The notes beneath the pieces are model-generated. The model did no database searches. It was not told where the DNA came from and saw only the letters and a program-made list of their open reading frames with translations. The position numbers and the translations under genes are program-made. This document shows, piece after piece, positions 19,249-63,218 of a stretch of DNA of 64,000 bases. The stretch's first letter is position 1. Every line of letters begins with the position of its first letter. The DNA comes from Candidatus Gottesmanbacteria bacterium RIFCSPHIGHO2_01_FULL_46_14 (GTDB taxonomy: Bacteria; Patescibacteriota; Microgenomatia; UBA10105; UBA927), in the NCBI GenBank assembly GCA_001780895.1, contig MFJJ01000010.1, forward strand, positions 898-64,897, in the 5' to 3' direction.

Positions 19249-19282
19249 TTATGTTACTATGTTTCGAAACATAGTAACATAA
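19249..19282. repeat. palindrome A, copy 2 (perfect 34 bp), probable operator
   Basis: TTATGTTACTATGTTTC|GAAACATAGTAACATAA. Confidence 0.95.
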
Positions 19283-19296
19283 GGCTGTAGGATTGT

Positions 19297-19737
19297 ATGA
19301 CGCAAATATCAAAATATCCTCTACGAAAAGAAATTGAGAATCGGATGCTTGAGGTTTTTCTTGATAGCATAGGGATGGTAAAAACCCGAGAACACGTCCA
19401 GAAACTCATTGATGATCTCTTCTCTCCTACCGAGCGCGTAATGCTCGCAAAACGCCTGTCTATAGCACTGTTGCTTCTTAAGAAATATGATCAGAGGACG
19501 GTAGCAAGAATACTCAACGTAAGCTTAGGAACGGTAAATAAAGTGAGCTTAGCGCTTCAGAAAGGAAATGGAGGGTATGAATTGGTCGTTAATTCTATAG
19601 TTCGACAGGAGAAATTTCACGCGTTTTTAGAGAAAATCGATGAAACACTCGTAGATATCGTTACCACGGGTCATTCTCTTCCTAATTGGCGTCGCGTGCG
19701 GTGGGAAACGAAAATCCGCAATCGAAAGCCTTACTAA
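19297..19737 (+). CDS. TrpR/YerC/YecD-like repressor
   Basis: DLFSPTERVMLAKRLSIALLL...RTVARILNVSLGTVNKVS HTH. Confidence 0.85.
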   Translation: MTQISKYPLRKEIENRMLEVFLDSIGMVKTREHVQKLIDDLFSPTERVMLAKRLSIALLLLKKYDQRTVARILNVSLGTVNKVSLALQKGNGGYELVVNSIVRQEKFHAFLEKIDETLVDIVTTGHSLPNWRRVRWETKIRNRKPY

Positions 19738-19740
19738 CAC

Positions 19741-19770
19741 ATGTTACTATGTTTCGAAACATAGTAACAT
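19741..19770. repeat. palindrome A, copy 3 (perfect 30 bp)
   Basis: ATGTTACTATGTTTC|GAAACATAGTAACAT, 3 nt after the stop codon. Confidence 0.95.
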
Positions 19771-59900: not shown

Positions 59901-60986
59901 ATGTCCAAGCTCACCGATGAAGTGGAGGCACTTCGAAAAAAACTTAGTGAAGCGCACGTTCCAAAAGAATTAACAACGCGTGTTGAAGGCAATTTGGAAG
60001 AAATACTTCGTATTGAACATGACATTACTTCCCGCGCGCACATTGATCAAATCCTCCGTTACGTCGATTGGGTACTCCATCTCCCATGGGATACGCGAAC
60101 CAATGACGTTCTTGATTTACCCAAGGCACGAGAGATTCTCAATAAACACCACTACGGCTTGGAGCCAGTTAAAATCCGAATTTTGGAGTATTTAGCAATA
60201 TTGAAGCTTAACCTTGATCGCTGGAAGAATGAGTCGTCCACCAATGAGGCAAAGCTTTCTCATGCAATTTTGGCTCGTCGTGCACCGATTTTGTGTTTAG
60301 TAGGACTCGTCGGTACCGGAAAAACGACGCTTGCTAAATCGATTGCCGAGGCAATGGGGAGGCGCTACGTGCGTATTCCATTTGGAGGAATGAGTGATTC
60401 TCTGGATCTTCGTGGACAATCCCGTGTACGAGCTGATGCGGAGATAGGTTTAATCCTCAAGGGACTCCGGTTTGCCGGGACAAAAAATCCCGTGATATTG
60501 CTCGACGAAATAGACCGTGTCGCAGAACAAACCCGCGGTGACATTATGGGAGTGCTCGTTGAGCTTTTGGATCCGGAACAAAACGTCGCATTCACCGATC
60601 ATTATTTGGACTATCCGTTTGATTTATCTGAAGTCCTTTTTATCGCAACGGCCAATAATACGACCAACATCGCTACAGCAGTCCTCGATCGTTTGGAACC
60701 GATCCAGATGCCTTCCTATAGCGACGAAGAAAAGATCACTATTGCAAAAGATTATGTTCTCCCACAGCTCATGGCTGAATCAGGGCTCACGAAAGAAAAT
60801 TTAACCATTGATGAGTCCATTTGGCCTAAACTCGTCAGACCCTTGGGCTATGATGCCGGCATCAGAAGTCTCGAGCGCACCATGAATAGTCTGTGTCGCA
60901 AAGTTGCCCGCATGATTGTGGAAGGAAAGGGAAAGAGCTTCACCGTAACGCCGGAAAATATAAAGGAATTTATCGAAACGTATTAA
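59901..60986 (+). CDS. Lon-like AAA+ protein lacking the N-terminal and protease domains
   Basis: HYGLEPVK.RILEYLA, GLVGTGKT, NPVILLDEID, LLDPEQN..F.DHY; ends before the protease domain. Confidence 0.85.
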   Translation: MSKLTDEVEALRKKLSEAHVPKELTTRVEGNLEEILRIEHDITSRAHIDQILRYVDWVLHLPWDTRTNDVLDLPKAREILNKHHYGLEPVKIRILEYLAILKLNLDRWKNESSTNEAKLSHAILARRAPILCLVGLVGTGKTTLAKSIAEAMGRRYVRIPFGGMSDSLDLRGQSRVRADAEIGLILKGLRFAGTKNPVILLDEIDRVAEQTRGDIMGVLVELLDPEQNVAFTDHYLDYPFDLSEVLFIATANNTTNIATAVLDRLEPIQMPSYSDEEKITIAKDYVLPQLMAESGLTKENLTIDESIWPKLVRPLGYDAGIRSLERTMNSLCRKVARMIVEGKGKSFTVTPENIKEFIETY

Positions 60987-60999
60987 GCGGAATTATTAT

Positions 61000-61031
61000 G
61001 ATACTGTATTACTGAACAGTAATACAGTATC
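61000..61031. repeat. palindrome B, copy 1 (15-bp perfect arms)
   Basis: GATACTGTATTACTG-AA-CAGTAATACAGTATC. Confidence 0.95.
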
Positions 61032-61050
61032 CAGTTTATCGAAATTGAAT

Positions 61051-61440
61051 ATGACTAGGGTATCCCGAGTTCCGCTCAGTAACAAAGAGAAGTTGTCATT
61101 GACTGAAGAGTTTTGGAACACACTCGGAGAATTGAATAAAACGCAGGTCGAGCATTTTTTTAGAGAGTTCTTTTCGCCAACGGAGATTGTAATGTTTGCA
61201 AAGAGACTTCATATTTTAAAAAGTCTTCGACAGAACACTACATATGAGCACATACAACAAGGCATTAAGGTTACTGAGCCTACGATCGCCAAGATGAGTG
61301 CAATACTGCAACGCGGCGATGAAGATTTTTTCCGTATTCTTGATTACTTAATTCGTGATGAAAACAGTAGATGGCAAGCATATCTCGATTCTCGTAAACC
61401 TCACATTCGGGGAAAAATGATTTTTCATGTTAATAGATAG
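61051..61440 (+). CDS. TrpR/YerC/YecD-like repressor, second paralog
   Basis: EFFSPTEIVMFAKRL.I...L....TYEHIQQGIKVTEPTIAKMS. Confidence 0.8.
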   Translation: MTRVSRVPLSNKEKLSLTEEFWNTLGELNKTQVEHFFREFFSPTEIVMFAKRLHILKSLRQNTTYEHIQQGIKVTEPTIAKMSAILQRGDEDFFRILDYLIRDENSRWQAYLDSRKPHIRGKMIFHVNR

Positions 61441-61441
61441 T

Positions 61442-61469
61442 TACTTTATTACTGTCCAGTAATTAAGTA
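61442..61469. repeat. palindrome B, copy 2 (degenerate)
   Basis: TACTTTATTACTG-TC-CAGTAATTAAGTA, 1 nt after the stop codon. Confidence 0.85.
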
Positions 61470-61484
61470 TTACATTACAGACAT

Positions 61485-63218
61485 ATGAGACGTTTTTTTC
61501 AAAGAAGAAAACAACAAACTGTTTTTCAGGGTTCTTCGGGAAGTGGGAAAGATTCAGTTCGTGTTATCCCTCTTGGCGGGACGGGGAATGTGACGAAAAA
61601 TATGTTCGTCTATGAGTATCGCTATGATGGAAAACTCCGGGATATACTTCTGGTTGATTGCGGTATCGGATTTCCAGACCCGGATATGTATGGCGTCGAT
61701 TTAGTCATACCCGATGTGCGATATTTGGAAAACAAACGAAACGCTATCAGGGGATTGGTGTTTACTCACGGACATGATGATCACATTGCGGGGATTCCCT
61801 ATGTTTATCACAAACTGGGGAGTATTCCCATGTGGGCAACGACGCTCACCGCAGCGTTTGCCAATATTAAGCTCAATGAAATTCACATTCGGGAGCGAGT
61901 CAAGGCAGTCTCGTTTGATACGACGCTTCGGATAGGGCCGTTTACCGTATCATTTGTCCGCGTGACCCACTCGGTACCAGATGCGGCGAATTTGATTATT
62001 CAAACGCCGATTGGAATGTTTTATCACGGCAGCGATTTTAAGTTTGATTTTGACCCCCTTGACGGGAAAAAATCAGAGCTCGAAAAAATTACCGCGGCGG
62101 GCAAGCGCGGAGTACTCTGTTTGCTCACTGACTCATTGGGAAGCGAACGGCCGGGGTTTACCCCGTCTGAACAGGCCGTAGGTGATACGCTGGAAAAAGA
62201 GCTCCGCTTAAGTACCGGTAAGTTTCTTTTTACCACGCAGTCGAGTAATATCTCCCGTATTCAATTAGCAATTGAACTCGGTCTCAAGTATCATCGGCAA
62301 ATTGCATTCTTAGGAAGAAGTATCGATCAGAATGTGGAAGAGGCAGTAAAACTTGGTTACATGAAGTTTCCCCGCGAGGCCTTGATCGGCGATCGGGATC
62401 TCAAACGAATTCCGGCCAATAAGCAATTCCTGGTCGTTGCCGGGAGCCAAGGGCAGTCTGATTCAGCGCTCACGCGGATTGCAAATGATACCCATCGATT
62501 TGTCCATTTAGAAGAGAGCGATACGGTGGTATTTTCAGCCGATCCGATCCCCGGGCACGAAAATGACGTGGGGAGTCTTATAGACCAAATATATCGAAAA
62601 GGCGCGCGCGTTTCCTACTCTTCCATAATGGAGGATCTTCATGTATCCGGCCACGGGAGCCAAGGCGACTTAATGCTTATGCTTTCAGCATTAGGTCCCA
62701 GATATGTGTTTCCTATCGGAGGGACGTATCGTCACACCATGCAATATCGAAGATTGGCCCAAGACATTGGATACGAGAAGCGCGATATTCTTATTCCGGA
62801 AGAAGGCGATGTCATAGAATTTCGGTCCGATGCTCCCCCCAGGGTTGCAGAACGCATAGCCCTAGAAAACGTCATGATAGACGGATTGGGAATTGGAGAT
62901 GTTGGCGATATCGTCCTGCGTGATCGCCAAACGATAGCCAAAGAAGGAATTGTTGTCGTGGTTGTACCGATTGAGCAGTCATCGAGTCGTGTGGTCGGAG
63001 GAGTTGATATTATTTCACGCGGATTTGTCTATATGAGGCAATCGGGGAAATTGGTTGATGATGCCAAGCGTATCGTGTCAGCTTCTCTGAAGCTTCGAAA
63101 AGGCCGAATGGTCGATTGGCAATTTGCGAGAAAACAAATAGAAGAAGAACTTGCACGATTTCTCAAGCGCGAAACCGGCCGAAATCCTTTGATTGTCCCC
63201 GTTTTAGTTGAAGTATAA
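61485..63218 (+). CDS. rnj: ribonuclease J
   Basis: PLGG...KNM, THGHDDHI, HSVPD, GSQG, HVSGH. Confidence 0.95.
   Translation: MRRFFQRRKQQTVFQGSSGSGKDSVRVIPLGGTGNVTKNMFVYEYRYDGKLRDILLVDCGIGFPDPDMYGVDLVIPDVRYLENKRNAIRGLVFTHGHDDHIAGIPYVYHKLGSIPMWATTLTAAFANIKLNEIHIRERVKAVSFDTTLRIGPFTVSFVRVTHSVPDAANLIIQTPIGMFYHGSDFKFDFDPLDGKKSELEKITAAGKRGVLCLLTDSLGSERPGFTPSEQAVGDTLEKELRLSTGKFLFTTQSSNISRIQLAIELGLKYHRQIAFLGRSIDQNVEEAVKLGYMKFPREALIGDRDLKRIPANKQFLVVAGSQGQSDSALTRIANDTHRFVHLEESDTVVFSADPIPGHENDVGSLIDQIYRKGARVSYSSIMEDLHVSGHGSQGDLMLMLSALGPRYVFPIGGTYRHTMQYRRLAQDIGYEKRDILIPEEGDVIEFRSDAPPRVAERIALENVMIDGLGIGDVGDIVLRDRQTIAKEGIVVVVVPIEQSSSRVVGGVDIISRGFVYMRQSGKLVDDAKRIVSASLKLRKGRMVDWQFARKQIEEELARFLKRETGRNPLIVPVLVEV

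Follow-up and report, generated by a model that had tools for sequence, protein, structure and literature searches.

The closest described relative of the system reported here is HisR (YerC of B. subtilis), a TrpR-family protein of the Firmicutes. According to its description (PMC9413887), HisR is associated with 20-base-pair (bp) lineage-specific palindromes at genes for the biosynthesis and uptake of histidine, and a site upstream of its own gene, present in roughly half of the genomes studied in that work, was read as autoregulation. In the present work, we analysed a stretch of 64,000 nucleotides (nt), referred to as the window, from the genome of Candidatus Gottesmanbacteria bacterium RIFCSPHIGHO2_01_FULL_46_14. 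At positions 61000–61469 it contains a 470-bp unit in which a TrpR/YerC-family gene, designated gene B, stands between two copies of a palindrome, and this unit separates the gene of a Lon-like ATPase (lonL) from the RNase J gene rnj. On balance, we favour the reading that the unit is an inserted gene together with two copies of its palindrome, which the gene product is predicted to bind as dimers; it would thereby repress its own gene and likely influence rnj. The literature search turned up no account of TrpR-like genes with such a bracket, nor of regulators of this kind in the candidate phyla radiation, HisR being the closest system (PMC9413887). New here are the insertion, a palindrome type confined to the one gene-holding genome of the 61 searched, the coincidence of palindrome and promoter in the B clade, and palindrome copies lying in frame inside genes. 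To our knowledge, almost nothing is known about gene regulation in candidate phyla radiation bacteria, which have tiny genomes.

The window corresponds to positions 898–64897 of contig C10 in a 0.94-megabase genome of 63 contigs, which is 90% complete and was obtained from groundwater metagenomes. The upstream palindrome, the predicted operator, occupies positions 61000–61031 and is a perfect 15+2+15 sequence, GATACTGTATTACTG-AA-CAGTAATACAGTATC, with 100% complementary arms. It consists of four TACTG/CAGTA pentamers, two pointing forward (TACTG at 61002 and 61010) and two pointing back (CAGTA at 61017 and 61025), with an 8-bp spacing inside each arm. Gene B (61051–61440, forward strand) starts 20 nt past this palindrome, encodes a protein of 129 amino acids beginning with MTRVSR and ends with a TAG stop codon at 61438–61440. 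A degenerate copy, TACTTTATTACTG-TC-CAGTAATTAAGTA, with 13-nt arms and one mismatch between them, follows at 61442–61469. Its first base lies 1 nt past the stop codon of gene B, its last base 15 nt before the ATG of rnj (61485), and over a length of 29 nt it shares 83% identity with the upstream copy. All details given in the initial annotation were confirmed, including the 8-bp repeat of TACTG, the position of the unit between the Lon-like gene and rnj, and the end of the downstream copy 15 nt before the ATG of the latter. With up to three mismatches allowed, the 18-nt palindrome core occurs twice in the window, more often than expected by chance: the mean in 100 shuffled sequences was 0.14, and two of these also reached two. 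The G+C content of the unit is 37% (gene B alone, 39%) against 46–47% for the neighbouring genes and 45.8% for the genome.

The search of protein B against Pfam gave Trp_repressor (PF01371; E = 1.9e-10, 41.1 bits with a cut-off of 27) as the sole family above its cut-off, a match to NifW staying under its own. The NCBIfam matches, TrpR-related and NifW, were all below cut-off: for YerC/YecD (TIGR02531, cut-off 42.2 bits) protein B scored 28.9 bits and paralog A of the same genome 34.6 bits, and protein B likewise did not reach the cut-off for TrpR. The AlphaFold2 model, built from an alignment of 55 relatives of the long type defined below, has a mean predicted local distance difference test score of 92 and six helices, the last of which (residues 91–115) has no counterpart in TrpR-like chains of about 100 residues. 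The Foldseek search of this model against the PDB returned the TrpR-like proteins 3KOR and 3G1C (S. aureus and Eubacterium eligens) as the best matches, followed by E. coli TrpR, and the tandem-binding complex 1TRR was also among the matches. The template modelling scores of the best matches were 0.66–0.80 when normalised to the target (0.72–0.80 for the top ones), and the best E-value was only 1.4e-3. Meanwhile, a phmmer search of the PDB with protein B gave 3KOR at 8e-6, and its two structures were the same as the top two of Foldseek. In the long-type alignment, K51-R52 and E45 are invariant, the latter within an SPTE motif of the consensus, and we take these residues to be the counterparts of TrpR pocket residues. 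The small-molecule corepressors in this family are tryptophan for TrpR and histidine for HisR. The codons of the predicted recognition helix VTEPTIAKMS occupy positions 61270–61299 of the forward strand, and TIAKM is invariant in all six B-clade proteins aligned. As modelled, protein B is a member of the TrpR family with the all-helical TrpR fold and its helix-turn-helix.

Protein B resembles HisR/YerC in being a small TrpR-fold helix-turn-helix protein with a palindromic operator that varies between lineages (predicted for B; for HisR, PMC9413887), and its nearest solved structures, 3KOR and 3G1C, are of the YerC branch. It differs in its length of 129 amino acids with the extra C-terminal helix, compared with about 100 for HisR/YerC, and in its sites, which are 28–32 bp long instead of 20 bp, comprise four repeats and stand on both sides of the gene. 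A single genome may hold up to five paralogs of B, each with a private site, and the B-type sites flank their own gene or lie inside two genes that are not his genes. With E. coli TrpR, protein B shares the fold, palindromic operators overlapping promoters, autoregulation (predicted for B) and the 8-bp spacing of half-sites. However, the sequence identity of the two proteins is only about 14–17% in the fold alignments, and B has no link to tryptophan genes. Neither the bracketing layout nor the dispersed identical copies are features of TrpR.

The adjacency of lonL and rnj in relatives, a comparison proposed in the initial annotation, was examined in 29 fetched loci, one of which ends at a contig edge, leaving 28 evaluable. 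The two genes were directly adjacent in 25 of them, with gaps of -1 to 103 nt, often 0–5 nt. No TrpR-like gene was present at this junction in any of the 28 loci, no solo palindrome was found at the empty junction of the relatives, and the nearest relative, with 87% identity in the Lon-like protein, is without the unit. This gene order indicates that the unit composed of gene B and its two palindromes is an insertion. The three loci of the B clade lie in three different contexts; the neighbours of the ortholog in the related genome G057 are, as we assume, an ITPase-like gene and serS. At 50–65% identity, a neighbouring gene was shared by 10 of the 76 long-type pairs, compared with 141 of the 228 pairs of short YerC-like genes, the pairs being non-independent and some of them possibly paralogs. 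The module appears to be portable as a unit. In the contigs of four DNA sequencing runs covering 60400–62100, identical pieces bridge both the lonL/palindrome and the palindrome/rnj boundaries and no joint skips 61000–61469, a result that is neutral on mobility. The joints listed in those runs had short sides (at most 41 letters) with 85% similarity and probably stem from other organisms.

The bracketing of TrpR-like genes was then assessed in a sample of 98 PF01371 genes from 47 of the 61 related genomes. Left out were a gene with a frameshift, two genes that lacked a usable start, one contig-end locus and a duplicate of the window locus; three further genes were short of the full 100-nt flank. 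Genes were assigned to the long type if the N-terminus of the protein matched M..[VIL]S[KR] and its length was at least 125 amino acids, and the 100-nt upstream and downstream flanks were counted as matching if they shared at least 17 of 20 bases. By this measure, 48 of the 53 long-type genes had matching flanks, 31 of them with 20 of 20 bases; such flanks occurred in only 5 of the 42 TrpR-like genes of short or other type and in 33 of the 400 mismatched flank pairs. A 16-nt site core was present on both sides in 43 of the 48 genes, centred (median) about 21 nt before the ATG and about 19 nt past the stop codon, the two centres being 418–552 bp apart. The long-type proteins have 126–162 amino acids, and the short YerC-like genes found in these genomes (about 100 amino acids) make up a separate group without the bracket. 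The suggestion that such site–repressor–site modules constitute a family was thereby borne out.

The genome under study has five PF01371 genes, and a private palindrome family of 4–17 copies belongs to each of them. A palindrome stands just 5' of the ATG in four of the five genes and, in three of these, also just 3' of the stop codon; for the fourth gene, on contig C59, a degenerate downstream copy was found in a further search, and the fifth, located at a contig end, has a palindrome upstream. Paralog A (19297–19737, forward strand, 146 amino acids) lies in the window as well. Its 30-bp palindrome, ATGTTACTATGTTTCGAAACATAGTAACAT, is found at 19251–19280 and again, identical, at 19741–19770. 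The initial annotation rightly kept the two paralogs apart, as both the predicted helices (VTEPTIAKMS in B, VSLGTVNKVS in A) and the palindromes differ. Genome-wide, 62 palindromes had an arm score of at least 11, compared with 4 in a mononucleotide shuffle. Most copies of the TrpR-linked families start 0–15 nt past a stop codon, and no TrpR-linked site of the genome lies beside a gene recognisable as a histidine gene.

The site sequences cluster by protein clade, which points to a clear co-diversification of protein and site at this level. Among 49 genes, the site distance correlated with the distance between recognition helices (r = 0.43) and with that between the remaining parts of the proteins (r = 0.50). 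With the rest of the protein controlled for, the helix kept a partial Mantel correlation of 0.21, which none of 2000 permutations reached, although such permutations overstate the significance among relatives. The helix-specific covariation was not accepted as proof of a residue-level code leading from helix to site, the partial correlation being weak and the rest of the protein predicting the site at least as well. Of the repressor–operator code proposed initially, the clade-level pairing is thus supported, and its helix-specific part cannot be told apart from shared ancestry.

The B clade is rare. Among the 60 relatives, an ortholog was found in G057 only (locus L007, 50% identity), and the metagenome contigs gave one more locus (L067, 47–48% identity). 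A database of 5.8 billion proteins added three B-clade proteins of 67–71% identity without DNA context, and a wider search of genome contigs for B orthologs returned one weak unrelated match (L066). The three loci with known DNA, those of the window, L007 and L067, are all bracketed and have the outer half-site ACT[A/G]TATT in common. The B-type palindrome, with up to three mismatches allowed, occurs in one of the 61 genomes searched, the one holding gene B, which has four copies: two flanking the gene and two inside coding regions. In G057, a variant of the palindrome private to that genome is present in six copies, and the ortholog is bracketed by two of them.

The symmetry of the sites bears on the level at which they may act. 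In 36 of the 49 sites, the sequence is palindromic through the very centre without any spacer, while the B site has 2 central nt. The arms match themselves at 53% of positions when shifted by 8, compared with 25–39% at other shifts, and 8 bp is the spacing of tandem TrpR dimers. As the loop of a hairpin has no need of symmetry through the centre, this feature points to a role in DNA rather than in RNA. The dyad symmetry of the sites would also suit binding by an intertwined homodimer of the TrpR kind. No terminator-like site (a G+C-rich stem followed by a T-run) was found in 60800–61700 or in the loci of the two B-clade relatives. The Rfam search gave no family match: a microRNA model on the hairpin was the only one to appear, with 29.5 bits where the gathering score is 86.

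Upstream palindrome and near-consensus promoter coincide in the two B-clade relatives. The promoter of the G057 gene, TTGACT-17-TATAGT, ends 6 nt before the ATG, and the palindrome spans it from the last three bases of TTGACT to TATAGT. In L067, the sequence TTGACT-17-TAAAGT ends 9 nt before the ATG and overlaps the palindrome in the same manner. A mirror-image promoter was also scored on the other strand of both loci. In the window, a promoter-like match, TCGAAA-18-TATGAT, is located at 60973–61002 of the forward strand; the palindrome shares its first 3 nt with the second hexamer of this match, which is a consensus match only (9 of 12 positions). No promoter-like match was scored before rnj. 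It should be noted that near-consensus -10 boxes (at least 5 of 6 positions of TATAAT) ending at -7 were found in 34 of the 425 genes preceded by a gap of at least 45 nt, where the background is about 3 per position, and leaderless transcripts thus appear to be common in this organism.

Taken together with the layout of the locus, these features suggest the following mechanism. Protein B would bind its private palindromes as dimers. Two dimers in tandem on each palindrome are probable, given that the arms are direct repeats of 8-bp period, as they are at the operators of E. coli TrpR. At the upstream copy, the protein may repress its own gene by occluding the promoter, because the palindrome spans the -35 to -10 region of the near-consensus promoter in both B-clade relatives. 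The pnp-lonL-rnj string would have received the unit as one block. With the old junction broken by the insertion, the downstream copy may then gate the transcription of rnj or supply it anew, and the control of rnj is the weakest step of this mechanism.

Copies of the palindromes were also found inside coding genes. The third B-type copy, a perfect 16+2+16 palindrome at C62:15279–15312 (locus L135), lies in frame in a conserved gene for a protein of about 440 amino acids, for which Pfam gave no family. Its left arm provides the codons of the conserved EF.VLL motif and its right arm takes the place of a variable stretch; the length is unchanged in comparison with 11 relatives, none of which has the palindrome. 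The fourth copy, with 2–3 mismatches, is likewise in frame and lies in a TsaD loop of variable length. The paralog on contig C14 has a 22-bp palindrome family, TAAAATGATTYRAATCATTTTA, with 17 hits in the genome. One copy lies in frame in FolD, where, by comparison with relatives, it fills a length-variable segment between two conserved motifs. The in-frame copies of this type, at C28:9417-9438, C48:5880-5901, C19:32650-32671, C19:22654-22675 and C11:1046-1067, encode KMIQIIL or NDLNHL. Four further genes with such copies are presumably those of a Mur-type ligase and of cysteine-desulfurase-like, aldo/keto-reductase-like and FemAB-like proteins. Rickettsia palindromic elements, which reportedly are about 100–150 bp long, lie in frame in genes and have no cognate protein gene, are likewise palindromic repeats tolerated in frame in conserved genes. 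Unlike them, the copies described here measure 22–34 bp, and at least one replaced codons without a change in length. In the FolD variable segment of a relative without a PF01371 match at E <= 1e-5 (L168 of G008), a different AT-rich palindrome, AATATATTAATATATT, was seen. At an orthologous glycosyltransferase junction, G057 has a B-variant palindrome (L161:1501-1526) and the genome under study has a different TrpR-linked family (C7:5153-5190).

Several observations weigh against a self-repressing gene with two operators. The window palindrome itself overlaps only a poor counterpart of the promoters seen in the relatives, GATACT-17-TACAGT, the -10 part of which lies 22 nt before the ATG; the region of the palindrome contains 2 promoter-like matches, compared with a mean of 2.5 in shuffles; and the long-type genes show no sharp peak of -10 boxes at -7. 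The gene downstream of the module is convergent in 14 of the 48 loci, and so the second site would belong to the module, not to the neighbour. The control of the neighbouring gene suggested in the initial annotation is therefore not supported as a general reason for the downstream site. Sites of the families also stand between convergent genes, and two of the four B-type copies lie within coding regions with no evident use as operators. Copies of one family are often identical across 22–28 bp, which suggests copying and not the independent selection of operators, and all G057 copies share one asymmetric position, which again looks like copying. Finally, the covariation of helix and site is inseparable from shared ancestry. 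A plain regulon leaves the insertion, the poor conservation of neighbours, the identity of copies within families and their in-frame occurrence in genes unexplained; these features sustain the idea of a self-propagating partnership of the REPIN-RAYT kind, in which the palindromes replicate, the TrpR-like protein promotes or tames their spread, and any regulation is incidental. We regard such a partnership as possible, although unlikely. It would account for a unit inserted in a conserved gene junction, for three B-clade loci in three contexts, for the low synteny (10/76 against 141/228), for identical copies within families, including the one asymmetry in those of G057, and for the in-frame copies in the protein of about 440 amino acids, TsaD, FolD and four further reading frames, and selfish spread gains support from the insertion, the synteny and these intragenic copies. 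The architecture is also RAYT-like: as described for RAYTs, a short single-copy gene lies in its own palindromic repeat type, found at its flanks, with one repeat family per paralog and copies at gene ends (PMC3337134, PMC3116915). However, RAYT is an HUH/tyrosine transposase, whereas protein B has the TrpR fold only, as a predicted DNA binder without a nuclease or transposase domain. REPINs reportedly number up to hundreds per genome (10.1101/119743), compared with 4–17 copies per family here. The contigs of four further sequencing runs contain no form without the unit, a result which is itself neutral on mobility, and the low synteny perhaps comes partly from paralog pairs. We know of no transposition mechanism for a helix-turn-helix protein alone. 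A variant in which no transposase would be needed has, in our view, the same minor chance of being right: each end of the travelling cassette would be a palindromic promoter-operator working in both directions, new palindrome copies would arise by length-neutral conversion of partly similar DNA, even in frame in housekeeping genes, and the protein would silence stray promoters.

Boundary or roadblock elements like Tus-Ter or ParB-parS, at which the bound protein would punctuate transcription units or organise the chromosome and leave the gene insulated between two of them, could be expected at junctions of all orientations, including convergent ones, as was found here. The different palindrome families at one glycosyltransferase junction in G057 and this genome, and the retention of the downstream site even where the next gene is convergent, agree with this as well. 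However, the intragenic copies would obstruct their host genes, there is no sign of higher-order oligomers, and five separate paralog–site systems are hard to justify structurally, which makes this explanation improbable. RNA hairpins at gene ends, serving termination, processing or stability and unrelated to the protein, would fit the location of most copies 0–15 nt past a stop codon, the copies between convergent genes and the perfect 13–15-bp stems, which are expected to fold stably. They are nevertheless quite improbable, as terminator-like sites, G+C-rich stems and T-runs are missing, 36 of 49 sites are symmetric through the centre, the arms contain the 8-bp repeat, the sequence is particular to the protein clade and was found only alongside the gene, and no Rfam match exceeds its gathering score. 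We give very little credit to a cassette moved by site-specific recombination of the Xer/pdif kind, with the flanks as recombinase core sites and the solo copies as docking sites. The 28–32-bp sites do flank the gene and solo copies exist elsewhere, but the palindromes are perfect with 0–2 central nt (none in 36 of 49) and lack an asymmetric central region of 6–8 bp, the site sequence follows the TrpR-like clade and not any recombinase, and the empty lonL-rnj junction of the relatives has no solo palindrome.

If the inserted gene with its two putative operators is indeed a self-repressing module, one fold with up to five paralogs per genome and private, readable sites would represent a ready-made set of presumably orthogonal repressor–operator pairs, as well as a natural setting in which to study the diversification of DNA-binding specificity. 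Such a module can, as this locus shows, become inserted beside RNase J, within a gene pair that is essential and tightly coupled. With the insertion and the palindromes in coding sequences, a new type of mobile regulatory DNA becomes conceivable.

The upstream neighbour, the Lon-like gene, is located at 59901–60986 of the forward strand and encodes an AAA+ ATPase of 361 amino acids (Pfam AAA, 1e-17; Lon_lid, 2.1e-12), in which Pfam detected no protease domain. Each of the 61 genomes searched contains a match to this protein (E <= 1e-30), which coexists in them with a full-length Lon of about 800 amino acids. PNPase adjoins the Lon-like gene in 27 of the 29 fetched loci. The downstream neighbour rnj (61485–63218, forward strand) is complete and matches Pfam RNase_J_b_CASP, RNase_J_C and Lactamase_B. 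At the lonL-rnj junction of another relative (L049:1001-1501, G011), a 490-bp insert holds a 23S_rRNA_IVP (four-helix-bundle) gene inside inverted AAATCCTAAAT-type repeats, and in two more relatives (L063, L064) the junction contains the gene of a HAD hydrolase. The genome under study also contains palindrome families without a tie to TrpR-like genes, namely those of the CAAATTAGTCTAATTAGAC, ATTTCAAGGCTAAGCCTTGAAAT and TTGTCATCCCGGC...GCCGGGATGACAA types and long G+C-rich hairpins. Some short YerC-like genes of the relatives (L082, L086, L079) have tandem CATATTAACATGTTAATATG-type palindromes, which stand on the downstream side only.

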